Assembly (NCBI RefSeq): GCF_016127575.1
Contig: NZ_CP066020.1
Coordinates: forward strand, 90,001 to 122,000
Length of the DNA: 32,000 nt
Direction: 5' to 3'
Origin: Cupriavidus necator
Lineage (GTDB): Bacteria > Pseudomonadota > Gammaproteobacteria > Burkholderiales > Burkholderiaceae
The notes beneath the pieces were generated by a model. It was not told where the DNA came from. It made no database searches and was given only the letters and a program-made list of their open reading frames with translations. Position 1 is the first letter of the stretch, and each line of letters begins with the position of its first letter. This document shows, piece after piece, positions 1-15,780 of the stretch. The position numbers and the translations under genes are program-made.

Positions 1-840
1 GGCGACGAATTCATGGCGCCGTTCCACAAGGCCGCCCGCGGCGAAATCGATAACTTCGTGCTGGTGCTTGAAGGGTCCATTCCCAATGAGCGCATCAACG
101 GCGAGGGCTATTGGGCGGCGATGGGCACCGACCCCCAGACCCACCAGCCCATCACGATTCCCGAATGGCTGGACCGGCTCGCGCCCAAGGCGCTGGCCGT
201 GGTGGGGGCGGGCACTTGCGCCACCTATGGCGGCATCCACGCCATGGAAGGCAATCCAACCGGCTGCATGGGCCTGGCGGACTACCTCGGCTGGCAGTGG
301 AAATCCCGTGCCGGCCTGCCCATCGTGAACGTCCCGGGCTGCCCCGTGCAGCCTGATAACTTCATGGAAACGCTGCTGTACCTCTTGTACCAGCTGGCGG
401 GCCTCGCGCCGATGATCCCGCTGGACGAGGCGCTGCGCCCGAAATGGCTCTTCACGCGCACCGTGCACGATGGCTGCGATCGCGCCGGCTCGTACGAGCA
501 GGCCATCTTCGCCACCGAGTACGGCAACCCGAACTGCATTGTCAAGCTTGGCTGCTGGGGGCCGGTGGTGCAATGCAACGTACCAAAGCGGGGCTGGATC
601 GCCGGCGTCGGCGGGTGTCCCAACGTGGGCGGGATCTGCATCGGCTGCACCATGCCGGGCTTCCCGGACAAGTTCATGCCGTTCATGGATGCGCCGCCTG
701 GAGCCGTGCTGTCGTCGAACCTGATCAAGAGCTACGGCCCGCTGATTCGCAGCCTGCGCAAGCTGACCAAGGACACGCTCAACGATGAGCCGAAGTGGCG
801 GCACAACCAGCCAGTTCTCACTACCGGCTACCGCGGATAA
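1..840 (+). CDS. hofK: [NiFe]-hydrogenase small subunit, group 1h/5 (actinobacterial-type, AH); 5' end lies outside the window
   Basis: Frame 1 is open from nt 1 (GDEF precedes the first Met at 13). It carries FeS-ligand Cys motifs typical of small subunits: GTCATYGG, PGCPVQPDN, KLGCWGPVVQCN, GGICIGCTMPGFPDKF. TAA at 838-840. It sits 37 nt upstream of the large subunit gene. Confidence 0.9.
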   Translation, partial: GDEFMAPFHKAARGEIDNFVLVLEGSIPNERINGEGYWAAMGTDPQTHQPITIPEWLDRLAPKALAVVGAGTCATYGGIHAMEGNPTGCMGLADYLGWQWKSRAGLPIVNVPGCPVQPDNFMETLLYLLYQLAGLAPMIPLDEALRPKWLFTRTVHDGCDRAGSYEQAIFATEYGNPNCIVKLGCWGPVVQCNVPKRGWIAGVGGCPNVGGICIGCTMPGFPDKFMPFMDAPPGAVLSSNLIKSYGPLIRSLRKLTKDTLNDEPKWRHNQPVLTTGYRG

Positions 841-877
841 GCGGCGGGAACGCGCATTCTAAGATTTGGAGGTGGTC

Positions 878-2689
878 ATGGCCACAATCGCTGCTCCTGG
901 TGCCAGGCCGCGCGCCCAAGCCGCGCCGGGCAAGCTGGTCGAGATGAACTGGGATCCGATCACCCGGATCGTCGGCAGCCTCGGCATCTATACCAAGATT
1001 GATTTCGAGAACCGCCGCGTGGCCGAATGCTACAGCACGTCGTCCATCTTCCGCGGCTACAGCATCTTCATGAAGGGCAAGGATCCGCGCGATTCCCACT
1101 TCATCACCAGCCGCATCTGCGGCATCTGCGGCGACAACCACGCCACCTGCTCGGTCTACGCGCAGAACATGGCCTATGGGGTGAAGCCGCCGCCCATCGC
1201 GGATTGGATCATCAACCTGGGCGAGGCGGCCGAATACATGTTCGACCACAACATCTTTCAGGACAACCTGGTCGGCGTGGATTTCTGCGAGCAAATGGTC
1301 CGCGAGACCAACCCCGGCGTGTGGGAGAAGGCGAAGACCGCAGAGGCGCCGCACGCGGCCGAGCATGGCTATCGCACTATTGCGGACATCATGACGGCGC
1401 TCAACCCGTTTACCGGGGAGTTCTACCGCGAGACATTGCTGGTCAGCCGGTATACGCGCGAGATGTTCTGCCTGATGGAAGGACGCCACGTGCACCCGTC
1501 CACGCTCTATCCCGGCGGGGTGGGCACCGTGCCGACCATCCAGCTGTTTACCGACTACATCACGCGCCTGATGAAGTACGTTGAATTCATGAAAAAGGTG
1601 GTGCCGCTGCACGACGACCTGTTCGACTTCTTCTATGAAGCACTGCCGGGCTACGAGGAGGTGGGCCGGCGCCGAATCCTGCTCGGCTGCTGGGGATCGT
1701 TCCAGGATCCGAACGTCTGCGACTACAACTACCGCACCATGACCAAATGGGGGCGCGGGATGTTCGTCACGCCCGGCGTGGTGGTCGACGGCGAACTCCT
1801 CACGACGGACCTGGTCGACATCAACCTTAATATCCGCATCCTGCTCGGCAGTTCGTTTTACCAGGACTGGGATCATGAGGAAACCTCCGTCAAGAACGAC
1901 CCGCTCGGTAACGCGGTGGACCGCAAGCACCCGTGGAACCAGACCACGCTGCCGCGCCCGCAGAAGCGCAACTTCGGCGGCAACTACACCTGGGTGATGT
2001 CGCCGCGGTGGCTGGACAAGCGCACCGGCGACCATCTCGCGCTGGATACCGGCGGCGGGCCGATCGCGCGGCTATGGGCCACCGCGCTGGCGGGGCTGGT
2101 CGATATCGGATACATCAAGTCCACCGGCCACAGTGTCAAGATCTACCTGCCGAGGACCGCGCTTAAGCCGGAAGCCGAGTTCGAGTGGAAGATCCCGATG
2201 TGGAGCAACGCCATCGAGCGCGATCGGGCTCGCACCTACTTCCAGGCTTACTCGGCGGCGGCTGCGCTGTACTTCGCGGAACAGGCCCTGGCCGAGCTGC
2301 ATGCAGGCCGCACCCGCACGTTCACCGATTTCAAGGTGCCCGACGAGGCAATCGGCTGCGGCTTCCATGAGGCGGTACGCGGCGTGCTCTCGCACCACCT
2401 GGTCATCCGCGACGGCAAGATCGCCAATTATCATCCGTATCCGCCGACCCCATGGAACGCGAGCCCGCGCGACATCTACGGCACGCCCGGTCCCTACGAG
2501 GACGCGGTGCAGAACACGCCGATCTTCGAAGAGAACGGGCCCGAGAAGTTCAAGGGTATCGACATCATGCGCGCGGTGCGCAGCTTCGACCCTTGCCTGC
2601 CGTGTGGCGTGCATATGTACGTGGGCAACGGCAAGACCATCGAGCAGTCGCATTCTCCGACCTTCGGCGTGATGGCGGGGGCGCACTGA
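878..2689 (+). CDS. hofG: [NiFe]-hydrogenase large subunit, group 1h/5 (AH)
   Basis: GGAGG at 868-872 followed by ATG 878; the track's TTG at 866 lies inside the SD, so it is unlikely. N-terminal Ni-Fe ligand motif TSRICGICGDNH and C-terminal SFDPCLPCGVH, followed by a 24-aa extension (MYVGNG...MAGAH) that is the expected endopeptidase substrate. Confidence 0.93.
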   Translation: MATIAAPGARPRAQAAPGKLVEMNWDPITRIVGSLGIYTKIDFENRRVAECYSTSSIFRGYSIFMKGKDPRDSHFITSRICGICGDNHATCSVYAQNMAYGVKPPPIADWIINLGEAAEYMFDHNIFQDNLVGVDFCEQMVRETNPGVWEKAKTAEAPHAAEHGYRTIADIMTALNPFTGEFYRETLLVSRYTREMFCLMEGRHVHPSTLYPGGVGTVPTIQLFTDYITRLMKYVEFMKKVVPLHDDLFDFFYEALPGYEEVGRRRILLGCWGSFQDPNVCDYNYRTMTKWGRGMFVTPGVVVDGELLTTDLVDINLNIRILLGSSFYQDWDHEETSVKNDPLGNAVDRKHPWNQTTLPRPQKRNFGGNYTWVMSPRWLDKRTGDHLALDTGGGPIARLWATALAGLVDIGYIKSTGHSVKIYLPRTALKPEAEFEWKIPMWSNAIERDRARTYFQAYSAAAALYFAEQALAELHAGRTRTFTDFKVPDEAIGCGFHEAVRGVLSHHLVIRDGKIANYHPYPPTPWNASPRDIYGTPGPYEDAVQNTPIFEENGPEKFKGIDIMRAVRSFDPCLPCGVHMYVGNGKTIEQSHSPTFGVMAGAH

Positions 2690-3267
2690 TGAGCGGTGCC
2701 CGCACGGTCCAGGCGCAGCAGCAGCGCATCGAGGCGATGATCGCGGCACTGGAGAGCGTGGACGACAACCAGGCCAGCGCACTCGCGAGGGAACTGCTGC
2801 GGGTGGTGCTTGATCTGCATGCGGGCGGGCTCGCGCGGGTGATGGAGATCGTTTCCATGGCGGGCATCCAGGACAATCCGGTCGTCGAAGCACTGGTACG
2901 GGACCCTGCAGTCTGCGCACTGCTCAACCTGCACGGCCTGCATCCGCACGACCTGCCCACACGCGTGGCGCGCGCGGTGGAGCACATGCGGGCCGCGCTG
3001 GGCACCCAGGGCGTGACGATCGAACTGCGCGATGCCGCCGAGGAAGCCGTGCGCGTGCAGGTGTCAGGGCGGCTGCAAGGCAAGCACGCGTCGCCCGAGT
3101 CGCTGCGGCAAGAGATCGAGCAGGCCATCTTCGAGCAGGCGCCGGAAGTGGTGCGTGTCGAGATCGCCGGATTGGCCGACATCGACGTGCACGAACTGCG
3201 CTTTGTCCCGGCCAGGGAGATGCGCGGCCCGGACAGGCAAGGCCGGGTCGGGGGTGGCCAGCCATGA
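2689..3267 (+). CDS. Conserved hydrogenase-cluster protein of unknown function; NifU-C-terminal-like repeats that lack the CxxC pair
   Basis: ATG 2689 overlaps the hofG stop (TGATG). The upstream part of ORF 2452..3267 lies out of frame inside hofG. Two segments resemble the NifU C-terminal pattern by eye (LARELLRVVLDLHAGGLARVMEI; VEHMRAALGTQGVTIELRD..VRVQVSGRLQGKHAS..LRQEIEQAIFEQAPEV). The protein has only one Cys. Confidence 0.7.
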   Translation: MSGARTVQAQQQRIEAMIAALESVDDNQASALARELLRVVLDLHAGGLARVMEIVSMAGIQDNPVVEALVRDPAVCALLNLHGLHPHDLPTRVARAVEHMRAALGTQGVTIELRDAAEEAVRVQVSGRLQGKHASPESLRQEIEQAIFEQAPEVVRVEIAGLADIDVHELRFVPAREMRGPDRQGRVGGGQP

Positions 3268-3926
3268 GCGCGGGACCGTTCCCCGAGGCGCGGACCGGCG
3301 TACAGGGGTGCGGCGGCTGGGTGGCGCGCCTGCGCCAGTTCACGCGCAAGGCCGACTACGCGCAATGCGAGCTGTGCGGCGCGTCCATCGTCGCGGACCA
3401 TGCCCATCTGTTCGACACCACGCGGCGCCAATTGCACTGCTGCTGCCGGGCATGCGCGCTGCTGTTCGGCAGCCAGCAGGGATCCCGCTATCGCCCGGTG
3501 CCACGAGCAGGCCGCTATCTGGATGGGTTCCGGATGAGCGACGCACAGTGGGACGCGCTGGCGATCCCCATCGACGTGGCGTTCTTCTTCGTTGACTCGG
3601 GGGCCGCGCACGTCGTCGCGCTCTATCCGGGGCCGGCCGGTGGCACGCGCTCGCAGCTCGGCCTGGCGGCCTGGGACGACCTCGTTGCCGACAATCCCGA
3701 CCTCACGCGCATGCGTCCCGACGTGGAAGCGCTGCTCGTCTATCGCGCGCAAGGCGCCAGGGACTATTTCCTCGCGCCCATCGACCAGTGCTATGCGCTG
3801 ACCGGGCTGATCCGCGCGCGCTGGCGCGGCCTGTCGGGGGGCAAGCCGGCGTGGGAGGCGATCCGGGGCTTCGTTGCCGCGCTCAAGGCAACGGGCCGCG
3901 TGCCGGAGGGCCTGCTCCATGCCTGA
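3264..3926 (+). CDS. Conserved hydrogenase-cluster protein of unknown function with a Cys cluster (DUF5947-like by recollection)
   Basis: ATGA start/stop overlap at 3264-3267. High GC3. Motif QCELCG-x22-CCCRAC near the N-terminus. Confidence 0.75.
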   Translation: MSAGPFPEARTGVQGCGGWVARLRQFTRKADYAQCELCGASIVADHAHLFDTTRRQLHCCCRACALLFGSQQGSRYRPVPRAGRYLDGFRMSDAQWDALAIPIDVAFFFVDSGAAHVVALYPGPAGGTRSQLGLAAWDDLVADNPDLTRMRPDVEALLVYRAQGARDYFLAPIDQCYALTGLIRARWRGLSGGKPAWEAIRGFVAALKATGRVPEGLLHA

Positions 3927-4566
3927 CCTAACGTTCAGCATCAGCGCGGCCGAGGTGGCGCCGTTCGCCGCCGTGCCGCTGCTGCTGTTCAAGCTGCAGA
4001 TCGCGAACGCGCCCGCCGGCGAGGAGATCGCCAGCATCACGCTGCAATGCCAGATCCAGATCGAGGCGACCCGGCGCCGCTATGCGCCCGCCGAGCACGA
4101 TGGCCTGCAAGACCTGTTCGGCGTGCCGCAACGCTGGACGCAGACCCTGCGCACGATGCTGTGGACGCATGCAACCGTGATCGTGCCAGCGTTCTCGGGC
4201 ACCTGCGTCATCGACCTGCTCGTGCCGTGCAGCTTCGACTTCAACATCGCGGCGACCAAGTACTGCCATGCGCTGCAGGACGGCGAGATCCCGCTAATGC
4301 TGCAGTTCAGCGGCACCGTCTTCTATCGCAACGCGGACGACGCGCTGCAGGCGGCGCCCGTGCCCTGGCACAAAGAGGCCGCGTTCCGGCTGCCGGTGGC
4401 GGTGTGGCACGACATGATGGCGCGCTATTACCCGAACGGCGCCTGGCTGTGCCTGCAGCGCGAAGTCTTCGACCGGCTCGGCCGCTACAAGGCGCAGCAG
4501 GGCCTGGCGACCTGGGAGCGGGCGCTGGACGCGCTGCTCGACGGCGCCGAGGAGAAGGCATCGTGA
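3919..4566 (+). CDS. Conserved hydrogenase-cluster protein of unknown function (DUF6084-like by recollection)
   Basis: The internal ATG at 3919 (MPDLTFSISAAEV...) gives an 8-nt overlap with the preceding stop (3924-3926). The track start at 3874 would add an Arg-rich leader that overlaps the upstream gene. Confidence 0.7.
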   Translation: MPDLTFSISAAEVAPFAAVPLLLFKLQIANAPAGEEIASITLQCQIQIEATRRRYAPAEHDGLQDLFGVPQRWTQTLRTMLWTHATVIVPAFSGTCVIDLLVPCSFDFNIAATKYCHALQDGEIPLMLQFSGTVFYRNADDALQAAPVPWHKEAAFRLPVAVWHDMMARYYPNGAWLCLQREVFDRLGRYKAQQGLATWERALDALLDGAEEKAS

Positions 4567-5993
4567 ACCAGGTCGACAGCGTGATCCAGGCGGTGCTCTA
4601 CGAGGGCTACATGCTGTATCCCTACCGGGCGTCGGCGGTCAAGAACCGCCAGCGCTGGACGTTCGGCGGCGTCTATCCGCGCGCGTATTCGGTGGCGTCG
4701 GGCAGCGATCCCTGGATGACGCAGACCGAATGCCTGCTGTGCGGCGACGCCGATGCACGTGTCACGGTGGCACCCGGGTTCCTGCAGGTCGCCGACCGGA
4801 CCGTGCTGGCCGCGTCGGAGGACCTCTCGGAAGGCGGCACCGGAAACACAACTCCGTGGCGGGTGGTGCCGGTGCTGGACGTCGACGATCGCCGCTTTCA
4901 TCCGTGGCAGGAAGCCGTCGAGCGGCGGCTTGCGCTGCCGTCCATGCGGCTGGGCGAGCTGCTGGATGCGTCTCGGATCGAACCGTTCGCCTTTGCCGGG
5001 AGCGCCGAGATCGAGTTGCTGGCCGATCGCGAAGGCGTGGCACGCGGCGCGCTGCGCCGCACGCATGCCGCGCTCGTCGGCCATGTGGGGGTGGGCGCCG
5101 AGCGGGTCGATGACCGCGTGTGCAGGCTCACCGCCCGCATCGTCAACCTGACGCCGCTGGCGGACGCAGGGGCGCTCACGCGGGACGCCGCGTCGGTGTA
5201 TGCGCTGGTATCGTGCCACATGGTACTGTCCCTGGAGCAAGGCTGGTTCCTGTCGTCGATGGATCCGCCTCGCGCGCTCGCCGAGGCGTCGGCAGCGTGC
5301 CGCAACATCGGCACATGGCCCGTGCTGGTCGGTCAGGACGGGGAAGAGGGCGAGGGCGGGCATCGCACGATGCTGGCGTCGCCGATCATCCTCTACGATT
5401 TCCCGCAGATCGCGCCCGAGAGTGCCGGCGACCTGTTCGACGCCACCGAGATCGACGAAATCCTGACGCTGCGCATCCTCGCCATGACCGACGACGAGAA
5501 GCGCGAGATGGCCGCCACCGACGAGCGCGCGCGCGCGCTGCTGGCGCGCACCGAGCAGCTCGGGACGCAGCAGTTGCAGAAGCTGCACGGCGCCATGCGC
5601 CACATCCGCGGGGGCGCGGAATTGACCGAGGTGCCGGACCTGTCCGGCGATCCCGGCGCGCTGAACGAATCCGGCACGCCTTCTTCGCCATGGGCTGGCC
5701 TTGATGCAGGCCCGCGCCTGGCCTGCCTGCGGGTCGGTGGCATGGAGATTCGGGTGGGCGACCACGTTCGGCTCCGGCCGCGCTCGCGTGCGGACATCTT
5801 CGACATGGCCCTGAACGGCCAGTTGGCCACCATCGAATCCATCGAGCGCGATCTCGAAGATCGCGTGCACGTGGCCGTGACCGTCGACTGTGACCCCGGC
5901 AAGGACTTTGGGCTCGCGCGCATGCCGGGACATCGCTTCTTCTTCCGCCCGGACGAGATAGAGCCGCTGGGCGGTGCGGAGGCACAGGCATGA
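4563..5993 (+). CDS. Conserved hydrogenase-cluster protein of unknown function (476 aa)
   Basis: GTG 4563 overlaps the upstream stop (GTGA). The protein begins VNQVDSVIQAVLYEGYMLYPYR. The 5' part of ORF 4047..5993 is Arg/Ala-rich out-of-frame read-through of the previous gene. The acidic central region is followed by a segment (GGMEIRVGDHVRLRP...) that I read, speculatively, as beta-rich. Confidence 0.7.
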   Translation: MNQVDSVIQAVLYEGYMLYPYRASAVKNRQRWTFGGVYPRAYSVASGSDPWMTQTECLLCGDADARVTVAPGFLQVADRTVLAASEDLSEGGTGNTTPWRVVPVLDVDDRRFHPWQEAVERRLALPSMRLGELLDASRIEPFAFAGSAEIELLADREGVARGALRRTHAALVGHVGVGAERVDDRVCRLTARIVNLTPLADAGALTRDAASVYALVSCHMVLSLEQGWFLSSMDPPRALAEASAACRNIGTWPVLVGQDGEEGEGGHRTMLASPIILYDFPQIAPESAGDLFDATEIDEILTLRILAMTDDEKREMAATDERARALLARTEQLGTQQLQKLHGAMRHIRGGAELTEVPDLSGDPGALNESGTPSSPWAGLDAGPRLACLRVGGMEIRVGDHVRLRPRSRADIFDMALNGQLATIESIERDLEDRVHVAVTVDCDPGKDFGLARMPGHRFFFRPDEIEPLGGAEAQA

Positions 5994-6541
5994 GCGGCAT
6001 CCTGGTCGCGGGCATCGGCAATGTATTCCTCGGCGACGACGGCTTTGGGGTCGAAGTGGTGCAGCGCCTCGGCGCCCGCCAGGCCGCGCATGCCTTGCCG
6101 CCGTTTCCCGAAGGCGTAGTGGTGGCCGACTTCGGCATCCGCGGCATCGACCTGTGCTACGCGTTGCTCGACGGGGTGGACGCCGCCATCCTGGTCGATG
6201 CCACGCAACGCGGCGGGGCGCCCGGCAGCCTCTATGTGATCGAGTTGCCGATGGACGCGCAGGACGGCGACGGCGCTGGCGATCCGTACGCGTCACCTGT
6301 GCTGATGTCGCCGCATGAGATGAATCCGGCCCTCGTGCTGCGGGCGCTGCGGATGATGGGCGGCACTTGCGCGGACGTTGTGGTGATCGGCTGCGAGCCC
6401 GCCGACTTCGGGCTCGGCGAGGGCGAAGAGGGCCGGCTCGGCCTGAGCGAGCCGGTGGCGGCAGCGGTGGACCGCGCCGTTGCAATGGTCGAGGCAATGG
6501 TCGGGCGCAAGGCCGAGCAATTGTATGGACGGCCGGCGTAG
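5990..6541 (+). CDS. [NiFe]-hydrogenase maturation endopeptidase (HupD/HoxM/HybD family), presumably specific for HofG
   Basis: ATGA overlap at 5990-5993. The N-terminus ILVAGIGNVFLGDDGFG is the family signature. Size is 183 aa. Confidence 0.88.
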   Translation: MSGILVAGIGNVFLGDDGFGVEVVQRLGARQAAHALPPFPEGVVVADFGIRGIDLCYALLDGVDAAILVDATQRGGAPGSLYVIELPMDAQDGDGAGDPYASPVLMSPHEMNPALVLRALRMMGGTCADVVVIGCEPADFGLGEGEEGRLGLSEPVAAAVDRAVAMVEAMVGRKAEQLYGRPA

Positions 6542-6575
6542 GCGCGGTGGTCGTGTTCCTTGTGCAGGAGGCATC

Positions 6576-6677
6576 ATGAAAGGCTTTCTCAAGTACCTGG
6601 TCCTGCCGGCGCTGGTGGTCGCGCTGTTGGCCAATATAAAGGACATCCGGCGTTATATCCGGATACGCAGCATGTAG
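6576..6677 (+). CDS. 33-codon micro-ORF: predicted single-pass membrane peptide with a basic tail
   Basis: AGGAGG at 6566-6571, five nt upstream of ATG 6576. Product is MKGFLKYLVLPALVVALLANIKDIRRYIRIRSM. 26 of 33 codons end in G/C (my count), as in the flanking genes. It fills the protease-hypF3 gap. No homology check was possible. Confidence 0.5.
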   Translation: MKGFLKYLVLPALVVALLANIKDIRRYIRIRSM

Positions 6678-6706
6678 CTGCGCATCGCGCAGACCAAAGG
6701 CACGCC

Positions 6707-9166
6707 ATGCAAGCCTGTGCACTGCCAGTCCGGGACCGGTCCGCCGCGGTACGGCCACGCGGCGAGGAGATCCGCGTGCGCGGCATGGTGCAGGGGGTCG
6801 GGTTCCGGCCCACCGTATGGCGGCTCGCACACGATTGCGGGCTGTCCGGCTCCGTGCGCAACGACAGCGATGGCGTGCAGATCCGCGCCTGGGGCGACGC
6901 CGTGGCGCTGGACCGCTTCATTGCGCGGCTGCGGGACGAGTGCCCGCCCCTCGCGCGCATCGACGCCATCGAGCGCCGCGTCCTGGCGCAGGATGCCGAG
7001 GGCGCGGACCTGGGTGGCTTTCGCATTGTTGCCAGCGTGGGCGGGCCGGTGCGGACCGGCGTGGTACCGGACGCCGTGGTCTGTAGTGCCTGCATCGCCG
7101 ATATCGGCGACCCGCTGAACCGGCGCTATCGCTATCCGTTTGCCAACTGCACGCATTGCGGCCCGCGCCTGTCGATCGTGCGCGCGATTCCCTACGACCG
7201 CGCCAACACGGCCATGGCCGCGTTCCCGATGTGCCCGGCGTGCCTTGCCGAGTATGAAGACCCGGCCGACCGCCGCTTCCACGCGCAGCCGCTGGCCTGC
7301 GCGGCCTGCGGACCCCACGTGTGGCTCGAGCACACAGGCGGGCCGCTGGCCGCCGGCCCAGACGACGCGATCCGCGCGGCGTGGGCGCTCCTGCGCGACG
7401 GCGGGATCGTCGCCATCAAGGGCATCGGCGGGTTCCAGTTGGCCTGCGATGCCTGCAACCCCGTGGCGGTGGCGCGCCTGCGCCAGCGCAAGCGGCGCGA
7501 GCGCAAGCCGTTCGCACTGATGGCGCGCGACCTGGCGGTGATCCGCCAATACAGCGAGCCGACCGCGGCCGAATGTGGGTTGCTGCAAAGCCCGGCGGCA
7601 CCCATCGTGATCGTCCAGACGCGCAGCGACCGGCAGGGTGCGCCCCTGGCGCCCGACGTCGCGCCCGGCATCGCCGCGCTGGGGTTCATGCTGCCGGGCA
7701 CACCGCTGCACTGGCTGCTGATGGCGATGGCCGACCGCCCGATCGTGCTGACCAGCGGCAACGCCAGCGACGAGCCCCAGTGCACGGAGAACGCCGACGC
7801 GCGCATGCGCCTCGGCGCGATCGCCGATGCGTTCCTGATGCATGACCGTGACGTGGTCCGGCGCGTGGATGACTCAGTCGCGCGCGTCGTGCTGGACGTG
7901 CCCCGGGTGATGCGGCGCTCACGCGGATATGCGCCCGCGCCGCTGCCGTTGCCGCCGGGCTTCGCTGCCGCGGCGCCGGTGCTGGCCATGGGCGGCGAGC
8001 TCAAGAACACGTTCTGCCTGATGCGCGCGGGCGAGGCCATCTTGTCCCACCATATGGGCGACCTGGAAGACGCGCTGACCCATGCCGACTACCGCCGCGC
8101 GCTGACGCAATACATGGCGTTGTTCGAGCATGGCCCGCATCTGGTCGCGGTGGACATGCATCCCGAATACCTGTCCGGCAAGATCGGCCGCGACCTGGCA
8201 CGGCAGGGGCAGCTGCCGGTTGCGCAGGTGCAGCATCATCACGCGCATATCGCCGCGTGCATGGCGGAGAACCGCGTGGCCCTGGCCGCCGGCCCCGTAC
8301 TGGGCGTGGCGCTGGATGGCATCGGGTACGGTGTCGATGGCAGTCTATGGGGTGGCGAATTCCTGTTGGCGGACTACCGGGACTTCACGCGGCTGGCCTG
8401 CTTCAAGCCCGTGGGGATGCCCGGCGGTGAGCGCGCGATCCACCAGCCGTGGCGCAATACCTACGCACATCTGGCCGCCGCGGTCGGGTGGGATACCCTG
8501 ATCGCCCGGCATGCCAGCCTGGCGCTTGTACGCTTCCTGGCAACGCGCCCGCGCGAGGTACTGGACGCCATGCTTACGCGCAGCATCAACAGCCCGCTGG
8601 CCAGCTCGGCCGGGCGGCTGTTCGATGCGGTGGCGGCGGCCGCTGGCGTCTGTCCCGAGCGGGCATGCTACGAGGGGCAGGCCGCCATGGAGTTCGAAGC
8701 GCTGGCCGATCGCCGCACGCTGAGCGAGGAAGACGATGGCCGTGCCTATCCGTTCGCCATCGTGCCGGGCACGCCGGCCTGCCTGGAGCCGGGCCCGATG
8801 TGGGTGGCCCTGCTGGCTGACCTGGCGCGCGCTACGCCGGCGCCGCTGATCAGCGCGCGCTTCCACAAGGGGCTGGCGATCGCCATCGCGAGCATGGTCG
8901 CGTACCTGGCGGACTGCCCGGGCGCGGGGTGCCGCGCGGTGCCGGTGGCCCTGTCCGGCGGTGTGTTCCAGAACCGCATCCTGCTCGAACAGGTCGCCAC
9001 GCGGCTTTCCGCGCAAGGCCGCCGCGTGCTGACGCACAGCCAGGTACCCGCCAATGACGGCGGCCTCTCGTTCGGGCAGGCGGCCATCGCCGCCGCGCGG
9101 TCCCTGGGAGGCGCAGACGTTGCAGGCCAGGCAAACGCGGGCTATCGGAGTACAACATGTGCCTAG
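6707..9166 (+). CDS. hypF3: Carbamoyltransferase HypF, full length (acylphosphatase + 2 Zn fingers + YrdC-like + Kae1-like domains)
   Basis: [18 protein letters not shown] (acylphosphatase); [29 protein letters not shown] and [28 protein letters not shown] (Zn fingers); [17 protein letters not shown] (YrdC-like). The start at ATG 6707 is chosen over 6560, which would run through the micro-ORF. The exact start is uncertain. Confidence 0.9.
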
Positions 9167-9444
9167 GTATCCCCGGACAGATCCTGGAAGTGCGCGACGC
9201 CGCCAATGCCTTGGCGATGGTCGAGGTCGGCGGCGTGCGGCGCCTGATCAATATCGCCTTCATCGTGGACGACGACCACAAGGCCGAGGCTTGTGTGGGT
9301 GAATGGGTGCTGGTCCACGTGGGCTTTGCCATGAGCCGCCTGGACGAGGCGGAGGCGGCGCGCACGCTGGCGCTGCTGCATGAGCTCGGGATTGCGCAGG
9401 CCGAGTTCGACGAGATGCGCGCGGGGTCGCCGGCCCCGCCATAG
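9157..9444 (+). CDS. hypC2: Hydrogenase maturation chaperone HypC
   Basis: N-terminal [12 protein letters not shown] with the essential Cys2; [12 protein letters not shown] core. Overlaps the hypF3 end by 10 nt. Confidence 0.92.
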
Positions 9445-9515
9445 CGGGCGGGGGCAGGAGAACAGGGCGGGAGCAAGGCTGGGACGGCAGGAATCACGTA
9501 GCAAGGAGACGCGGC

Positions 9516-10205
9516 ATGCCCGGGGAAACACCACTGCAAGGGCTGTATCCATTCCTGCACGGGGAGCGGCAGGACGGCGCCAGGCTTGACGCAGCCTTAC
9601 TCGCTTCCGTGCAGCAGAAGGCCAGCGACAGCATTGACGCCAAGCGCCGCTTCTTCGAGCAGAACGGGCCCGTGGTGGTGGCGGTGGCCCAGGCAATTGC
9701 CTTGACCTACCGCAACGGCGGCCGGCTGTTTGCCATGGGCAACGGCGGGTCGAGCTGCGACGCGGCGCATATCGCGGTGGAGTTCCTGCATCCCGTCACG
9801 GCGGGTCGGCCGGCGCTCGCGGCCGTCAACCTCGTCGCGGATACGGCGATGATGACCGCAGTTGGGAACGACGTGGGCTTCGCCCACGTCTTCGTGCGCC
9901 AGCTGGTGGCGCAGGCGAGGCGCGGCGACGCGCTGATCGGTGTCTCGACCAGCGGCAACTCGGAAAATCTGCTCGCGGCCTTCGCCAAGGGCAAGGAGAT
10001 GGGTCTGGCGACCATCGGCCTGTCTGGTCACGACGGCGGCCGCATGGCGGCGAGCGCGGACCTCGATCACTGCCTGGTGGTGGACAGCGACAGCATTCAC
10101 CGGGTGCAGGAAACCCATGTTGCGATCTACCACATCCTGTGGGATCTGGTGCACACGTTGCTCGCCGAGGACCGCGGCGGGCTGGCCGCAGGAGGCGCGC
10201 GATGA
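9516..10205 (+). CDS. SIS-domain protein (GmhA/DiaA phosphoheptose-isomerase-like) embedded between hypC and hypD
   Basis: AAGGAGA SD before ATG 9516. SIS motifs FAMGNGGSSCDAAH and GVSTSGNSENL. The stop overlaps the hypD start (ATGA at 10202-10205). Confidence 0.85.
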   Translation: MPGETPLQGLYPFLHGERQDGARLDAALLASVQQKASDSIDAKRRFFEQNGPVVVAVAQAIALTYRNGGRLFAMGNGGSSCDAAHIAVEFLHPVTAGRPALAAVNLVADTAMMTAVGNDVGFAHVFVRQLVAQARRGDALIGVSTSGNSENLLAAFAKGKEMGLATIGLSGHDGGRMAASADLDHCLVVDSDSIHRVQETHVAIYHILWDLVHTLLAEDRGGLAAGGAR

Positions 10206-11413
10206 AGTACGTCGACGAATTCCGCGATCCCGCCAAGGCGCAGGCGCTGGCGCGGGAAATCCGTGATCTGGTGGCAGGCATGGGCCGCGCCAGGCGGCGC
10301 CCGCTGCAGATCATGGAGGTGTGCGGCGGCCATACGCATACGATTTTCCGCTACGGCATCCAGCAACTCTTGCCCGACGAGGTGGAGTTCGTGCATGGCC
10401 CGGGGTGCCCGGTATGCGTGCTGCCGATGGGGCGCGTCGACGACTGCGTGGCGCTGGCCGAGCGCCCCGAAGTGATATTCACAACGTTCGGCGACGCCAT
10501 GCGCGTGCCCGGCTCCCGCAAAAGCCTGCTCAAGGCCAAGGCGGATGGCGCCGATGTGCGGATGGTCTACTCGCCGATCGACGCGCTGGCGCTCGCGCGC
10601 AACCATCCGGACCGCGAAGTGATCTTCTTCGGCCTGGGCTTCGAGACCACCATGCCGAGCACCGCCATGACCGTTCTGCGCGCGCGGGCCGAGGGCGTGC
10701 GCAACTTCTCGCTGTTCTGCAACCACATCACGATCATCCCGACCATCAAGGCCATTCTCGATTCACCTGACCTGCAGATCGACGGCTTCCTCGGTCCGGG
10801 CCATGTCAGCATGGTGATCGGCACGCAACCGTACGAGTTTATCGCCCGGCACTACCGCAAGCCGATCACCGTGGCGGGCTTCGAGCCGCTGGACGTGCTG
10901 CAGTCGATGTGGATGGTCCTCAGGCAGATCGCGCAGGGCCGCTGCGAAGTGGAGAACCAGTACGGACGGATCGTGCCGGCAGCGGGCAATGCGCAGGCGC
11001 TGGCGGCGATTCAGGAAGTGTTCGAGCTGCGCGAGTTCTTCGAATGGCGCGGACTGGGCTCGATCGACTTCTCGGGTGTGCGGATGCGCGAGGCATTCTC
11101 CGCGTTCGACGCCGAGCGCAAGTTCACCGTGCCCGACGTCAAGATCGCCGACCCCAAGGCCTGCCAGTGCGGCGAGGTGCTCAAGGGCGTGATCAAGCCC
11201 CATCAATGCAAGGTGTTCGGCACCGCCTGCACGCCGGAGTCGCCGCTGGGGTCGCTGATGGTCTCGAGCGAGGGCGCCTGCGCGGCGTACTACCATTACT
11301 GCCGCATCGACACCTCCCGGCTCGGGCGACATGGCGCGCGAGCGGCCGGGCAAACGGCAACCAGGGATGCGGTTGCCAACGAGCGGGCCGCAGCCGGAGC
11401 CGGCCATGAATGA
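10202..11413 (+). CDS. hypD2: Hydrogenase maturation FeS protein HypD
   Basis: MKYVDEFRD start; motifs VCGGHTH, GPGCPVCV, GFETT, and C-terminal SSEGACAAYYHY. About 35 aa of Ala/Arg-rich tail follows the last conserved motif. Confidence 0.92.
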   Translation: MKYVDEFRDPAKAQALAREIRDLVAGMGRARRRPLQIMEVCGGHTHTIFRYGIQQLLPDEVEFVHGPGCPVCVLPMGRVDDCVALAERPEVIFTTFGDAMRVPGSRKSLLKAKADGADVRMVYSPIDALALARNHPDREVIFFGLGFETTMPSTAMTVLRARAEGVRNFSLFCNHITIIPTIKAILDSPDLQIDGFLGPGHVSMVIGTQPYEFIARHYRKPITVAGFEPLDVLQSMWMVLRQIAQGRCEVENQYGRIVPAAGNAQALAAIQEVFELREFFEWRGLGSIDFSGVRMREAFSAFDAERKFTVPDVKIADPKACQCGEVLKGVIKPHQCKVFGTACTPESPLGSLMVSSEGACAAYYHYCRIDTSRLGRHGARAAGQTATRDAVANERAAAGAGHE

Positions 11414-12473
11414 CCGTGTTCCGGTCCCGCCGGCACGCGCGGCGCGCGTGCGGGACACGACCATCAACCTGACCCACGGAAGCGGCGGCCGAGCGATGCG
11501 AGACCTGATCGAAGACGTGTTCGTGAGCACCTTCGACAATCCCGCGCTGGCCGCGCTAGAGGACCAGGCTGTGTTCCCGCTGGTCAGCCTGGCAGCCCAC
11601 GGCGACCGGCTGGCCTTTACCACCGACAGCTACGTGGTAGATCCGCTGTTCTTTCCCGGCGGCGACATCGGTACGCTTGCCGCGGCGGGAACCGTGAACG
11701 ACCTCGCGGTGTGCGGCGCGACGCCGCTGTTCCTGTCGTGCGGCGTGGTGCTGGAGGAAGGCTTGCCGGTCGACACCTTGCGCCGGGTCGCGGCCAGCAT
11801 GCAGCGCGTCGCGCGGGCAGCCGGCGTCGCGATCGTCACGGGCGACACCAAGGTGGTCGAGCGCGGCAGCGCGGACAAGCTGTTTATCAATACGGCCGGG
11901 ATCGGCGTGGTGCGCGCGGGGCTATCGATCTCCGCGCGCCATGCGCGTGCGGGAGACGTGGTTCTCGTCAATGGCTATCTTGGCGACCATGGCGCGGCGA
12001 TCCTGGTGGCCCGCCAGCAACTCGCACTTGAGGCCGACCTGCAAAGCGACTGCCGCCCGCTCAACGGGCTGGTCGCCGCGATGCTCGACGCCTGCCCCGA
12101 TATCCACTGCTTGCGCGACGCCACGCGCGGCGGCGTGGCGACAGTGCTCAACGAGTTCGCGCAGGCCTCCGGCGTGGCCATCCGCATCCGCGAGGTGGAC
12201 GTGCCGCTGCGCGAGGCTGTCAAGGGAGCGTGCGAGATCCTCGGGCTGGATCCGCTGTACCTGGCCAACGAAGGCATCCTGGTGGCCATAGTGCCGCCGG
12301 AGGATGCCGCGCGCGTGCTGGCGGCCATGCGCGCGCATCCTGATGGCAGGCAGGCGGCGGCCATCGGCGAAGTGGAGCCGGGGCCGGCGGGGCTGGTGGT
12401 TCTGCACACCGGCTTTGGCGGGCAGCGGGTTGTGGACATGCTGGTGGGCGAGCAGCTGCCGCGGATCTGCTGA
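11406..12473 (+). CDS. hypE2: Hydrogenase maturation protein HypE (carbamoyl dehydratase)
   Basis: ATG 11406 overlaps the hypD end by 8 nt. LTHGSGGRAM near the N-terminus. PurM-like body. Diagnostic C-terminal PRIC. Confidence 0.92.
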   Translation: MNDRVPVPPARAARVRDTTINLTHGSGGRAMRDLIEDVFVSTFDNPALAALEDQAVFPLVSLAAHGDRLAFTTDSYVVDPLFFPGGDIGTLAAAGTVNDLAVCGATPLFLSCGVVLEEGLPVDTLRRVAASMQRVARAAGVAIVTGDTKVVERGSADKLFINTAGIGVVRAGLSISARHARAGDVVLVNGYLGDHGAAILVARQQLALEADLQSDCRPLNGLVAAMLDACPDIHCLRDATRGGVATVLNEFAQASGVAIRIREVDVPLREAVKGACEILGLDPLYLANEGILVAIVPPEDAARVLAAMRAHPDGRQAAAIGEVEPGPAGLVVLHTGFGGQRVVDMLVGEQLPRIC

Positions 12474-12509
12474 GTGGCCGCACCCGGTGGACAGCAAGCG
12501 AAGGCCGAC

Positions 12510-12839
12510 ATGCACGAACTAAGTATCGCGAACAGCGTGGTCGAGATCTGTGCCGAGCAGGCGCGGGGCGCGCGCGTGCTCTGGGTGCAGCTCGAGATCG
12601 GCCGGCTATGTGCGGTGATGCCGGATGCTATCCGGTTCTGCTTCGACGTGTGTGCGAAGGATACGGCGGTGGAAGGCGCGGAGCTGGAGATCGTGGAGAC
12701 TCCCGGCGTGGCGCGCTGCTTGGCCTGCGGCGCCGAGTTGGAGATCGCGGTGCCGTTCGGGCAGTGCGCGTGCGGCAGCGAGAACCTGGAGTTGATCTCC
12801 GGGCAGCAGTTGAAGATCCGGCGCATGGAGGTGGCGTGA
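12510..12839 (+). CDS. hypA3: Nickel insertion protein HypA
   Basis: MHELSIA N-terminus (Ni site). Zn motif CLACG...CACGS. 109 aa. Confidence 0.9.
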   Translation: MHELSIANSVVEICAEQARGARVLWVQLEIGRLCAVMPDAIRFCFDVCAKDTAVEGAELEIVETPGVARCLACGAELEIAVPFGQCACGSENLELISGQQLKIRRMEVA

Positions 12840-13855
12840 TGTGCACGACTTGCGGTTGCGGCGATACGACGGGCGCAGTGGTCTCGGGCCCGGCAGCAGA
12901 AGGTGAACCGGCGCCAACAGCCGGCGCGGGACAGGACGTGGTGCATGCGCATCCGTATCCGGATGCCATGTCACCCGGGCCCGCGCAGGAGGCCGGCGGC
13001 ATGGTGTTGCGCAAGCATCCCGCCGACGATCATGCCGGCCACGCGGGTGCCCTCCTGCATGCGCCCATGCATCGGCGTGCCATGCATTACCACGACCATC
13101 CGCTCGAGCATGCGCACGCTCATTCCCACGAACACGCCCACGAACATGCTCACGAACATGCTCACATCCACGGCACCTCCGTCGTCATCGAGCAGGACAT
13201 CCTCGCCAAGAACCAGTGGATCGCGCAGCGCAATCGCGGCTGGCTGGCGGGGCGCTCCATTGTTGCGCTGAACCTCGTCAGTTCGCCAGGGGCCGGCAAG
13301 ACCACGCTGCTGGAACGCACCATCCGCGACCTGGGCCCGACGCTGGAGTTGACGGTGATCGAAGGGGATCAGGCCACGCTGAACGACGCGCAGCGCATCC
13401 GCGCGGCCGGCTGCCGTGCGATCCAGGTCAATACCGGCACGGGCTGCCACCTGGATGCAGACATGATCTCGCGCGCGCTGACCGCTCTCGATCCGCCGCC
13501 GCATTCAGTTGTCATGATCGAGAATGTGGGCAACCTTATCTGTCCGGCCCTGTTCGACCTTGGGGAGCAGGCCAAGGTGGTGATCCTCTCCGTGACCGAA
13601 GGCGAAGACAAGCCGCTTAAGTATCCACACATGTTCCGTGCCAGCAGCCTGATGCTGATGACCAAGACGGACCTGCTGCCGTACGTGAGCTTCGACGTGG
13701 CACGCTGCCTCGCCTGTGCGCGCCAGGTCAATCCGGACATCGCGATCCTACAGGTGTCGGCGCTGTCCGGCGCGGGAATGGATGACTGGTATCTCTGGCT
13801 TCGTACCGCCTGCGCAGGGCGTATCGCGCCGCCTGAGGACTCGTTTCCGGCGTGA
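12839..13855 (+). CDS. hypB3: Nickel-binding GTPase HypB with a long His-rich N-terminal region
   Basis: ATG 12839 overlaps the hypA3 stop (TGATG). MCTTCGC high-affinity Ni motif; HAHAHSHEHAHEHAHEHAHIH tract; P-loop SSPGAGKTT; ENVGNLICPA. Confidence 0.92.
   Translation: MCTTCGCGDTTGAVVSGPAAEGEPAPTAGAGQDVVHAHPYPDAMSPGPAQEAGGMVLRKHPADDHAGHAGALLHAPMHRRAMHYHDHPLEHAHAHSHEHAHEHAHEHAHIHGTSVVIEQDILAKNQWIAQRNRGWLAGRSIVALNLVSSPGAGKTTLLERTIRDLGPTLELTVIEGDQATLNDAQRIRAAGCRAIQVNTGTGCHLDADMISRALTALDPPPHSVVMIENVGNLICPALFDLGEQAKVVILSVTEGEDKPLKYPHMFRASSLMLMTKTDLLPYVSFDVARCLACARQVNPDIAILQVSALSGAGMDDWYLWLRTACAGRIAPPEDSFPA
13127..13162 (+). repeat. Three tandem 12-nt units (cacgaacaYgcY) encoding (HEHA)3 inside hypB3
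   Basis: Direct reading: cacgaacacgcc cacgaacatgct cacgaacatgct, followed by cac. Confidence 0.85.
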
Positions 13856-14287
13856 CCAGGGCATCGCTGGGCGGCACGTACCGGGTCGTGACTGTACAAA
13901 TGGAGTGATCCATCTGTCAGAAATGCCAGGTTCATGGTGTAGCGCGCCACGCCGTCGCGGCGCTCACGCGCTTCCGTGTGAAGCATCATGAGGTGATGCC
14001 TTGCCTACCTGCGCTAGCGAGCATATCGGGACATACCCCAGAGTCATGACGATTGAAAGCTGGCTGAAAGATCGGCTCACTACGGTTCGACCCATCCCTG
14101 CCAGCATGCGTCTGCATGCCAGGAACACCCTGCGCCTGAGGCTGCGCGCAGTGCCGCATTTCAAGTACTTTGAGGAGTATCGTTTTGCGCCTACGCAGCC
14201 CAAAGGATTAGCCTCCGGCCTGATGTTCATCCTGGTCGGGTTGGACTGTGGCCGGCTTTCATTACTGGTTAAGGAGTCGGCCAAAAA

Positions 14288-15780
14288 ATGGAACTATTCG
14301 AACACCTGGCCCTTGGATTCTCCACGGCGCTAACGCTGCAGAACCTGGCCAACTGCTTCCTCGGCTGCGTGCTCGGTACGCGTGCTGCCGGGCATCGGTC
14401 CGCTGGCCACCATCGCCATGCTGCTGCCGGTGACCTACACGCTGCCGCCGGTGGCCGCGCTGATCATGCTGGCCGGTATCTACTACGGCGCGCAATATGG
14501 CGGCTCCACTACCGCCATCCTGGTCAACCTGCCGGGCGAGTCGTCATCGGTGGTGACCACCATCGATGGCTACCAGATGGCGCGGCGGGGACGAGCGGGG
14601 GTGGCGCTGGCCACCGCCGGCATCGGCTCCTTCTTCGCCGGCTGCGTGTCTACACTGATCCTGGCAGCGTTTGCCACGCCGCTGTCGGAACTGGCGTTCA
14701 AGTTCGGCCCCGCCGAGTACTTCTCGCTGATGTGCCTGGGCCTGATCGGCGCCGTAGTGCTGGCCTCCGGTTCGCTCCCGGAGGCGGTGGCAATGATCGT
14801 GCTGGGGCTTCTGCTGGGCCTGGTCGGCACCGACGTGAACTCGGGCGCCGCGCGTTTCTCCTTTGATGTCCCTGAACTGACCGATGGCATCGACTTCGTC
14901 GCGCTGGCCATGGGCATGTTCGGCTTTGCCGAGATCATCGCCAACCTCGAACAGAAAGAACACCGCGAGACCTTTACCGATCACGTCACCAATCTATGGC
15001 CCTCCAAGGCGGACTTCAGGCGCATGGCACCCGCCGCTGCGCGGTACCGCGCTAGGCTCCATTCTGGGCATCCTGCCCGGCGGCGGTGCGGCGCTGGCTT
15101 CGTTCGCAGCTTACTCGCTGGAAAAGAAGACCTCGAAGTACTCGCAAGAGTTCGGCAAGGGCGCCATCGAAGGCGTGGCAGGTCCGGAGTCGGCCAATAA
15201 CGCCGCGGCGCAGACCTCCTTTATCCCGCTGCTGACGCTGGGCATTCCGCCCAACGCCGTGATGGCGCTGATGGTGGGCGCGATGGCCATCCACAACATC
15301 CAGCCCGGCCCGCAGGTGATGACCAGCAACCCCGCGCTATTCTGGGGCCTGATCGCCTCGATGTGGATCGGCAACCTGATGCTGATCATCCTGAACCTGC
15401 CGCTGATCGGGATCTGGGTGAAGCTGCTGCAAGTGCCTTACCGCTACCTGTACCCGGCCATCCTGGTGTTCTGCTGCATCGGCGTCTTCTCGGTCAACAA
15501 CCAGACCTTCGACGTCTTCACCGCGGCTGGCTTCGGTGTGATCGGCTACCTGTTCATCAAGCTCCAGTGCGAGCCGGCACCACTGCTGCTGGGCTTTGTG
15601 CTGGGACCGATGATGGAGGAGAACTTCCGCCGGACGCTGTTGCTGTCGCGCGGGACGTTCACTGTGTTCGTGACCGGTCCGCTGTCGCTCAGCCTGCTGA
15701 TTGCCGCCGCGCTGCTGGTTGGCATCGTTGCCCTGCCATCGATCAAGGCCAAGCGCGAGGAAGCGTTCCAGGAAGAGTAG
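14288..15780 (+). pseudogene. tctA: Tripartite tricarboxylate transporter large permease TctA, disrupted by two frameshifts; no tctB/tctC partner recognisable
   Basis: Three overlapping ORFs in frames 2, 0 and 1 together read as a TctA-family permease. They are MELFEHLALGFSTALTLQNLANCFLGCVLGT | VLPGIGPLATIAMLLP...WPSKADFRR | AWHPPLRGTALGSILGILPGGGAALASF...KAKREEAFQEE. The frame changes are near 14380 and 15020. AAGGAG SD before ATG 14288. Confidence 0.85.

Follow-up and report, generated by a model that had tools for sequence, protein, structure and literature searches.

The window analysed here, a stretch of 32,000 nucleotides of Cupriavidus necator DNA (contig NZ_CP066020.1, positions 90,001 to 122,000), carries the gene cluster of the actinobacterial-type (group 1h/5) [NiFe] hydrogenase (AH), as identified from the annotation of NC_005241.1 and from PDB entry 5AA5, which names the large subunit HofG. 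Five genes, PHG066 to PHG070 (here genes 1 to 5), and a micro-open reading frame (micro-ORF), PHG071, lie between the structural genes hofKG and hypF. We consider that this block is, on balance, an enzyme-specific accessory module of the group 1h hydrogenases AH and Hhy, forming one operon with hofKG and hyp and acting mainly in post-translational assembly. Bases 2400-6800 of the window are 100% identical to megaplasmid pHG1 of C. necator H16 (NC_005241.1, where record position = window position + 60177), which is annotated in the order nickel transporter, small subunit, large subunit, NifU family protein, DUF5947, DUF6084, hypothetical protein, maturation protease, and hyp genes.

The block is not a new object, its members having been recognized as conserved unknowns since 2013-2015. 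PHG066-69 were listed as four open reading frames (ORFs) of unknown function and PHG070 as a putative C-terminal protease by Jugder 2015 (PMC4377017), where PHG066, PHG067, and PHG070 rank in the top 50 genes by expression under AH induction, a pattern that favors a part in maturation. Homologues following hhySL have been called "conserved hypothetical proteins hhaABC" (bioRxiv 10.1101/457697), and MSMEG_2717 is homologous to PHG067 (Islam 2019, PMC6883350); we use HhaA, HhaB, and HhaC for genes 2, 3, and 4 by gene order. The original prediction, made from the sequence alone, had been of an undescribed accessory system: the set does prove to be hydrogenase-specific, but it corresponds to the named genes PHG066-PHG071, and three of its families are already domains of unknown function (DUFs) in Pfam.

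Association with group 1h hydrogenases

A scan of one genome per species, seeded with an alignment of gene 4, found relatives in at least 589 stretches, and the locus counts given here refer to its 80 best loci, which span Burkholderiales, other Gamma- and Alphaproteobacteria, Acidobacteriota, Verrucomicrobiota, Planctomycetota, Binatota, and one Salinivenus metagenome-assembled genome (MAG). Genes 3 and 5 are each present in 79 of these loci and gene 2 in 77, with the order 2-3-4-5 constant in about 77/80 species-level loci from several phyla. The structural genes hofK and/or hofG accompany the block in 71 loci, and in eight of the nine others the contig ends on the side where the hydrogenase genes would be expected. 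The ninth, from a Chthoniobacterales MAG (L078), is the only locus that has room yet lacks gene 5 and hofKG; it is atypical in having genes 1-4 while the protease gene and hofKG are missing within 4-7 kb. The block lies 3' of hofKG in Proteobacteria and Acidobacteriota and 5' of hofKG, gene 5 and micro-ORF included, in Verrucomicrobiota, and in six Verrucomicrobiota loci gene 1 is found between hypA and hypF. Junctions of at most 20 nt, roughly estimated from alignment ends, join genes 2 and 3 in 66 of 78 loci, genes 3 and 4 in 65 of 79, and genes 4 and 5 in 67 of 79.

Plasmids give the same picture. In a set of 72,556 complete plasmids, group 1h HofG (at least 72% identity) occurs in 12 records, the very ones that bear gene 2 and gene 4; ten of these 12 bear gene 3 as well. 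Annotated plasmids of Streptomyces fungicidicus and Mycobacterium intracellulare have the same gene order, genes 1 to 5 of S. fungicidicus being chained by 4-nt overlaps. Plasmid pSCAT of S. cattleyicolor (NC_016113.1) is atypical in that hofG lies between gene 2 and gene 4, and a search at E<=1e-5 did not detect gene 3 there. Co-occurrence thus bears out a hydrogenase-specific set, as the families are not as frequent away from hydrogenase loci as within them and are tightly tied to group 1h in both genomes and plasmids. Judged by gene content, the link between the block and group 1h hydrogenases is very strong. This exclusivity argues for a role in maturation, as do the movement of the block as a unit relative to hofKG, the presence of an endopeptidase gene in every locus but L078, tightly joined to the block in most, and the position of gene 1 among hyp genes in the six Verrucomicrobiota loci.

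Two known systems are instructive for comparison. The hhyE/hhaABC/hupD genes of group 1h clusters (HydDB nomenclature; M. smegmatis MSMEG_2718-2715 and T. roseum trd_1876-1874) comprise the same families in the same order and the same place next to hhySL, from which C. necator differs in a short gene 1 that lacks both the C-terminal domain with two CxxC motifs and the NifU CxxC. The hoxM-L-O-Q-R-T-V genes of the membrane-bound hydrogenase (MBH), on the same plasmid, share with the block the slot between structural and hyp genes, endopeptidase included, and serve the aerobic assembly of an O2-tolerant enzyme, as may by analogy be proposed for the block; this shared operon slot is a further argument for maturation. 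The protease alone is homologous between the two sets, and AH, in contrast to MBH, has no twin-arginine translocation (Tat) signal, so that Tat-proofreading chaperones would be unneeded.

PHG070 and the processing of HofG

According to the original prediction, the block's genes are free of motifs known from canonical Hyp or Hox maturation proteins, which is incorrect for gene 5. PHG070 scores 106.5 bits against a cut-off of 47.45 with TIGR00072 ("hydrogenase maturation protease") and 42.4 against 23 with PF01750, and its PDB relatives are the HybD-type proteases 5TTX and 1CFZ. Conservation of D16/D17, D70, and H109 extends to 77-78 of 78 orthologues, and these residues, which align with 5TTX, give PHG070 three metal ligands that match Glu/Asp16, Asp62, and His93 in HybD numbering. 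By these sequence features PHG070 is a canonical member of the HybD/HupD-type maturation endopeptidase family, sharing with HybD, HupD, and HoxM the TIGR00072 match, the three ligands, and a substrate with a tail after DPCxxCxxH. With the narrower equivalog models (hupD, hybD, and hycI) its scores stay under the cut-offs, which makes it a separate HybD/HupD-type subfamily, specific to group 1h.

The hofG gene encodes 603 residues, including a 24-residue extension after DPCLPCGVH, while the chain "HOFG" in PDB 5AA5 comprises residues 1-579 and ends at that His579. HofG is therefore processed, and the 24-residue tail is absent from the crystallized protein. With its removable C-terminal extension after DPCxxCxxH, HofG is the likely substrate of PHG070, and its processing argues for an assembly function of the block. 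The small subunit HofK, in its full form from locus L001, has neither a twin-arginine (RR) motif nor a transmembrane helix.

PHG066, a NifU-like homologue of HhyE

Gene 1 is a second exception to the predicted lack of maturation motifs. Following an N-terminal helical domain that ends in LHGLHP, residues 93-158 of PHG066 cover the full NifU-like PF01106 model (45.7 bits against a gathering cut-off of 27). PHG066 shares this complete domain with the Nfu/NifU C-terminal iron-sulfur (FeS) carriers but differs from them in missing the cluster-binding CxxC, whose position reads "GRLQGKHASPES"; the only Cys of the protein is C76. The CxxC is missing in 40 of the 71 gene 1 orthologues, most of them proteobacterial, and none of the proteobacterial orthologues examined keeps it; the canonical G-x-C-x-x-C-P-S-S is kept by most Verrucomicrobiota and some Acidobacteriota orthologues. 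The loss of the NifU CxxC in proteobacterial PHG066 is a new observation, and it means that the protein cannot be a conserved FeS carrier.

Two of the features by which HhyE is recognized in Islam 2019, a position directly 3' of the group 1h large subunit gene and a NifU-like domain, are found in PHG066; a third, a C-terminal domain with two CxxC motifs, is absent from its 192 residues. This CPxC...CxxC domain of full-length HhyE occurs in ~13 of the 71 gene 1 orthologues (roughly 290-317 aa) and also in a 301-aa NifU-family protein encoded next after hhyL in M. intracellulare, with which PHG066 shares 36% identity. Sequence comparison thus identifies PHG066 as a truncated, ligand-less HhyE homologue, and "truncated" forms of HhyE have been reported in a study that weighs electron transfer and maturation as HhyE roles (Islam 2019, PMC6883350). 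Deletion of hhyE in M. smegmatis abolished activity staining of Hhy, even with an artificial electron acceptor (Islam 2019, PMC6883350). That an artificial acceptor does not rescue the loss of HhyE favors maturation, as does the lack of cluster ligands in proteobacterial gene 1.

The idea that M. smegmatis HhyE is a fusion of genes 1 and 2 (NifU + DUF5947) was rejected, since the C-terminal domain of full-length HhyE-type proteins differs from DUF5947, having CPxC...CxxC after a "YAY" strand, and since DUF5947 is a separate downstream gene in Mycobacterium. Rare fusions to DUF5947 were nevertheless found (P0237, P0219, and L074 8402-9292), involving the N-terminal helical domain of gene 1 either alone or together with NifU, and they hint that both proteins work together or interact. 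The NifU part of P0237 looks frameshifted, and some fusions may be assembly artefacts.

PHG067, PHG068, and PHG069

Searches against Pfam and NCBIfam gave family matches for genes 1, 2, 3, and 5 and the micro-ORF, and none for gene 4. PHG067 matches DUF5947 with 226.5 bits (gathering 25) and contains the motif C-x2-C-x7-H-x-H-x10-C-x-C-x2-C together with a distal Cys. Each of the residues concerned, C35, C38, H46, H48, C59, C61, C64, and C176, is present in 77-78 of the 78 sequences compared, which represent six phyla, Actinomycetota included. These eight near-invariant Cys and His residues, a new observation, form a candidate metal site (Cys5His2+Cys). A likeness to the rubredoxin-type HoxR was not supported, the hhalign probability being 1.0% over 13 columns, with no match of PHG067 to a Pfam rubredoxin family.

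PHG068, which matches DUF6084 with 299 bits (gathering 25), is the most conserved protein of the block, with 57-60% identity even to Chloroflexota and Acidobacteriota and with R53, Y55, C104, and D107 invariant in 81 sequences. Its AlphaFold2 (AF2) model (pLDDT 83.4) has an Ig-like beta-sandwich followed by three helices, for which Foldseek against the PDB returned only generic sandwiches at TM-scores of at most 0.47 (TMEM106B luminal domain, CARDB, LEA14, ASF1, and arrestin). PHG069 matched no family in Pfam or NCBIfam, a Pfam scan of 42 gene 4 homologues at E<=1 gave no consistent family, and its homologue clusters, at least 7,989, are all named hypothetical. In the AF2 model of PHG069 (pLDDT 77.7), N-terminal helices with the invariant AVLYEGYxLYPYR...KNRQRW lead into a large beta-sandwich, which is followed by a helical stretch centred on the invariant acidic run ESxGDLFDxTEIDEIL and, at the C-terminus, by an SH3-like barrel. 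Within PHG069, D293, E296, D298, and E299 are invariant and H219, C246, H342, and H457 nearly so. In the Foldseek search of PHG069 against the PDB, the C-terminal barrel was the only part matched (PetP, nitrile hydratase beta C-domain, and BAH). Structure prediction with Foldseek, as had been suggested, yielded for genes 3 and 4 generic matches at domain level only.

When genes 2, 3, and 4 were compared by sequence with every PDB chain, nothing significant and no solved relative emerged, and profile-profile comparison of the three with each other found no relationship. Against HoxL, M, O, Q, R, T, V, X, and Z nothing was found by profile-profile comparison either, all hhalign probabilities with HoxL/O/Q/R/T/V/X/Z being at most 1%. 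The predicted beta-sandwich and SH3-like folds of HhaB and HhaC, with no solved relative and no relative among the MBH accessory proteins, are described here for the first time. In the models, genes 3 and 4 look like binding modules and match no cofactor-binding or enzyme fold, which is more easily reconciled with maturation.

The predicted transmembrane microprotein PHG071

The micro-ORF matches PF21833 (DUF6893) with 38.8 bits against a gathering cut-off of 24.6. It was at one point taken for an unannotated gene, but its exact sequence is AAP85824.1 / WP_011153993.1, "hypothetical protein PHG071", missing just from the PLSDB gene table, and the NCBI name for a close relative or cluster member is "DUF6893 family small protein". 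The 33-aa peptide was used to start an iterative profile search of every six-frame ORF in the 80 loci; 69 of them yielded a homologue at E<1e-6, all on the strand of the block and nearly always directly after gene 5. The homologue lies between the protease gene and hypA in Streptomyces and between gene 4 and the protease gene in M. intracellulare. The presence of the microprotein in the hydrogenase cluster in six phyla is a new observation. Two tandem DUF6893 paralogues occur in Acidobacteriota (L015, L019, L021, L024, L034, and L058) and Verrucomicrobiota (L056 and L072).

In PHG071 a single hydrophobic helix is combined with a basic C-terminal tail, whose motif is (P/K)(D/E)-h-x-R-Y-h-(K/R)-h-x-x-M-stop. 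Across 73 homologues, the motif Arg is kept in 71 (codons CGC, CGT, CGG, and CGA), the Tyr in 71 (36 TAT vs 35 TAC), and the terminal Met in 72, with stop codons divided into 37 TGA, 21 TAA, and 15 TAG. Invariant residues over synonymous codon variation are the mark of selection on a protein rather than on an RNA or DNA element, a conclusion that is new here. The gene that follows differs between loci (hypF, hypA, hofK, or the protease gene), which speaks against a leader peptide. The positive-inside rule predicts a cytoplasmic tail, on the same side of the membrane as the Tat-less enzyme. An inverted repeat with an 8-bp stem inside the micro-ORF (window 6643-6666), flagged as minus-strand terminator-like, overlies the D-I-R-R-Y-I-R-I codons and probably arises just from the recurrence of Ile and Arg codons.

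A metagenome scan seeded on the peptide motif alone, with a narrow alignment biased towards Burkholderiales-like sequences, confirmed 27 loci, of which 25 are in a hydrogenase cluster. On two short metagenome contigs a DUF6893-like peptide was seen with no hydrogenase gene visible, once convergent with a ubiE/COQ5 (quinone biosynthesis) methyltransferase gene (L102 621-701) and once adjoining an HbpS-like protein (L108 151-249), and in view of these copies the family may not be strictly confined to hydrogenase clusters. A phmmer search of the 33-aa peptide against 1.84 billion representatives gave seven matches and no informative fusion, the query being too short.

The conserved helix and tail raise the possibility, which we regard as unlikely, that PHG071 is the missing membrane anchor of group 1h, its helix lying in the membrane and its invariant R-Y...M-COOH tail, on the cytoplasmic side, docking the Tat-less enzyme either directly or through PHG067 as an electron relay. 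If this were true, it would explain the membrane dependence of high-affinity atmospheric H2 oxidation despite HhyS and HhyL lacking a transmembrane segment. HucM of the group 2a hydrogenase Huc is said to be a small extra membrane-tether protein, encoded with an O2-insensitive, Tat-less hydrogenase that reaches the membrane quinone. Any likeness between HucM and PHG071, with its 33 residues and single helix, would be a functional analogy only, with no sequence relation expected.

Operon organization

The features of the cluster are collected in the table. The six ORFs of the block exist on the + strand as originally predicted, and the five start/stop junctions read exactly as described: TGATG at 2687-2691, ATGA at 3264-3267, ATGCCTGA at 3919-3926, GTGA at 4563-4566, and ATGA at 5990-5993. 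GAGGAG precedes the start of gene 4 and GGAGG that of gene 5, and the micro-ORF, with its ATG at 6576 and its end at 6677, has AGGAGG 7 nt ahead of its start. No + strand terminator-like site was found in window 1-14500.

Features of the AH gene cluster, in window coordinates
Feature	Position	Strand	Family or source
hofK (PHG064), group 1h small subunit	1-840	+	PF14720, PF01058; 5' end outside window
hofG (PHG065), large subunit	878-2689	+	PF00374
Gene 1, PHG066, 192 aa	2689-3267	+	NifU-like PF01106, E 7e-12
Gene 2, PHG067, 220 aa, DUF5947	3264-3926	+	PF19372, E 2e-67
Gene 3, PHG068, 215 aa, DUF6084	3919-4566	+	PF19562, E 2e-89
Gene 4, PHG069, 476 aa	4563-5993	+	No Pfam or NCBIfam match
Gene 5, PHG070, 183 aa, HybD/HupD-type endopeptidase	5990-6541	+	TIGR00072, E 1e-30; PF01750
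Micro-ORF, PHG071, 33 aa, DUF6893	6576-6677	+	PF21833, E 1e-9
Dedicated hyp set, overall	6707-13855	+	NC_005241.1 annotation
hypF	6707-9166	+	NC_005241.1 annotation
hypC	9157-9444	+	NC_005241.1 annotation
SIS-domain gene	9516-10205	+	NC_005241.1 annotation; PF13580
hypD	10202-11413	+	NC_005241.1 annotation
hypE	11406-12473	+	NC_005241.1 annotation
hypA	12510-12839	+	NC_005241.1 annotation
hypB	12839-13855	+	NC_005241.1 annotation

The window DNA is 67-70% GC and holds long chance ORFs on both strands, so that ORF length alone is no proof of a gene. That the block might consist of chance ORFs or unrelated passengers is nevertheless so improbable that it can be set aside: Pfam matches above the curated cut-off for five of the six ORFs (all but gene 4), homologue clusters numbering hundreds to thousands each for genes 2, 3, and 4, and synteny conserved across phyla identify all six as genes by comparative sequence evidence, and the synonymous variation of the micro-ORF and the published expression data speak in the same direction.

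From the overlaps it had been argued that the block is co-produced stoichiometrically with the enzyme. This argument fails, as hypF/hypC, SIS/hypD, hypD/hypE, and hypA/hypB overlap likewise and the hyp genes encode catalytic maturases; the overlaps indicate one tightly packed operon and give no indication of stoichiometry with the enzyme. The same point weakens the suggestion, which we judge improbable, of a larger native holoenzyme that contains the products as stoichiometric subunits and disintegrates during purification. The conserved tight coupling of genes 2, 3, 4, and 5 would suit such a holoenzyme, as would the 57-60% identity of gene 3 across phyla and the precedent that HucM is understood to set in the group 2a enzyme, yet the coupled run includes a protease, the search of 5AA5 gave the large-subunit chain only, and the literature describes HofKG as a dimer of heterodimers.

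Some further features of these clusters were noted in passing. The hofK product is named "hydrogenase expression protein HypE" in PLSDB/RefSeq, a misnomer given its Pfam assignment as NiFe small subunit (PF14720, PF01058); the same name is attached to group 1h small subunits in S. fungicidicus (L082 11337-12425) and M. intracellulare (L083 3918-4973), and it looks like a propagated misannotation. The SIS-domain gene (PF13580) between hypC and hypD, which overlaps hypD by 4 nt, was detected in 47 of the 80 related loci and is absent from the Streptomyces cluster (L082); we know of no description of a role for an SIS-domain protein in NiFe maturation. A second hofK-like match lies ~3.5-4 kb upstream of the true hofK in five Acidobacteriota loci (L023, L024, L031, L034, and L039), and on the M. 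intracellulare plasmid a complete nuoA-H set (L083 11929-19305) starts directly downstream of the group 1h cluster.

Maturation and electron transfer as possible roles

For genes 1 to 4 and the micro-ORF we infer roles around the endopeptidase. PHG070 would remove the HofG tail after insertion of the NiFe centre, while PHG066 and PHG067 may assist in assembling the subunits' metal centres, or in protecting them, under air, a role that would resemble that of the unrelated HoxR, HoxO, HoxQ, HoxT, and HoxV for MBH. Subunit precursors would be held by PHG068 and PHG069, acting as protein-binding chaperones or scaffolds, and PHG071 would be the small membrane protein of the module, whose cytoplasmic tail may dock a module protein or the enzyme at the membrane. 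AH as purified and crystallized by Schafer and colleagues in 2013 and 2016 reportedly contains HofK and HofG only, which we count in favor of maturation.

Several points weigh against this interpretation. HhyE is reported to co-migrate with HhySL on native gels in Islam 2019 (PMC6883350), where an electron-transfer role is favored, and the Cys/His set of PHG067 would suit a redox-active FeS centre no less than a metallochaperone site. For genes 2-4, homology to any characterized maturation factor was not found. M. fumariolicum SolV has no homologues of these hypothetical genes and yet makes an active, membrane-associated group 1h enzyme (Schmitz 2020, PMC7174314), so that the accessory module is not universally required.

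Some of these points lead to a different arrangement, an electron-transfer and tethering chain in which PHG067, together with HhyE where it bears the Cys residues, would be an FeS acceptor from the distal HofK cluster, PHG071 would hold the enzyme at the membrane for quinone reduction, and PHG068 and PHG069 would be structural adaptors. We hold such a chain to be possible but rather unlikely. Its attraction is that it would account for two unexplained traits of group 1h enzymes, their electron acceptor and their membrane association: these enzymes are membrane-associated in M. smegmatis and M. fumariolicum with no known anchor, HofK has no Tat signal, transmembrane helix, or cytochrome b partner, and PHG071 is a conserved microprotein, predicted to span the membrane, whose basic tail should be cytoplasmic. 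The eight near-invariant Cys and His residues of PHG067 and the co-migration of HhyE would be accommodated as well, and, as cited in Islam 2019 (PMC6883350), Schafer 2013 proposed PHG067 as the electron acceptor. Against the chain, an artificial acceptor does not rescue the loss of HhyE, the Cys ligands are lost in all proteobacterial gene 1 orthologues examined, the M. fumariolicum enzyme is membrane-associated in spite of lacking genes 2-4, and the protease is always part of the block. The composition of AH, said to be purified and crystallized as HofKG, is likewise hard to reconcile with a stable chain of this kind. Maturation and a relay with a tether are not mutually exclusive.

Implications for group 1h hydrogenases

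Group 1h hydrogenases account for much of the removal of atmospheric H2 and are candidate air-stable biocatalysts, and their assembly in air, electron acceptor, and membrane attachment are acknowledged open questions (PMC6883350, PMC7174314, PMC10657181). The block holds obvious candidates for the factors concerned in all three. The hypotheses can now be sharpened to a universally conserved, predicted transmembrane microprotein, unmentioned in the cited papers on membrane association, to the candidate Cys5His2+Cys metal site of DUF5947, to the loss of cluster ligands in proteobacterial HhyE homologues, and to the chaperone-like roles that their predicted folds suggest for HhaB and HhaC. We see the interest of the block in this open biochemical question and in the conserved microprotein, and knowledge of the accessory genes would be needed for the heterologous production of group 1h enzymes.

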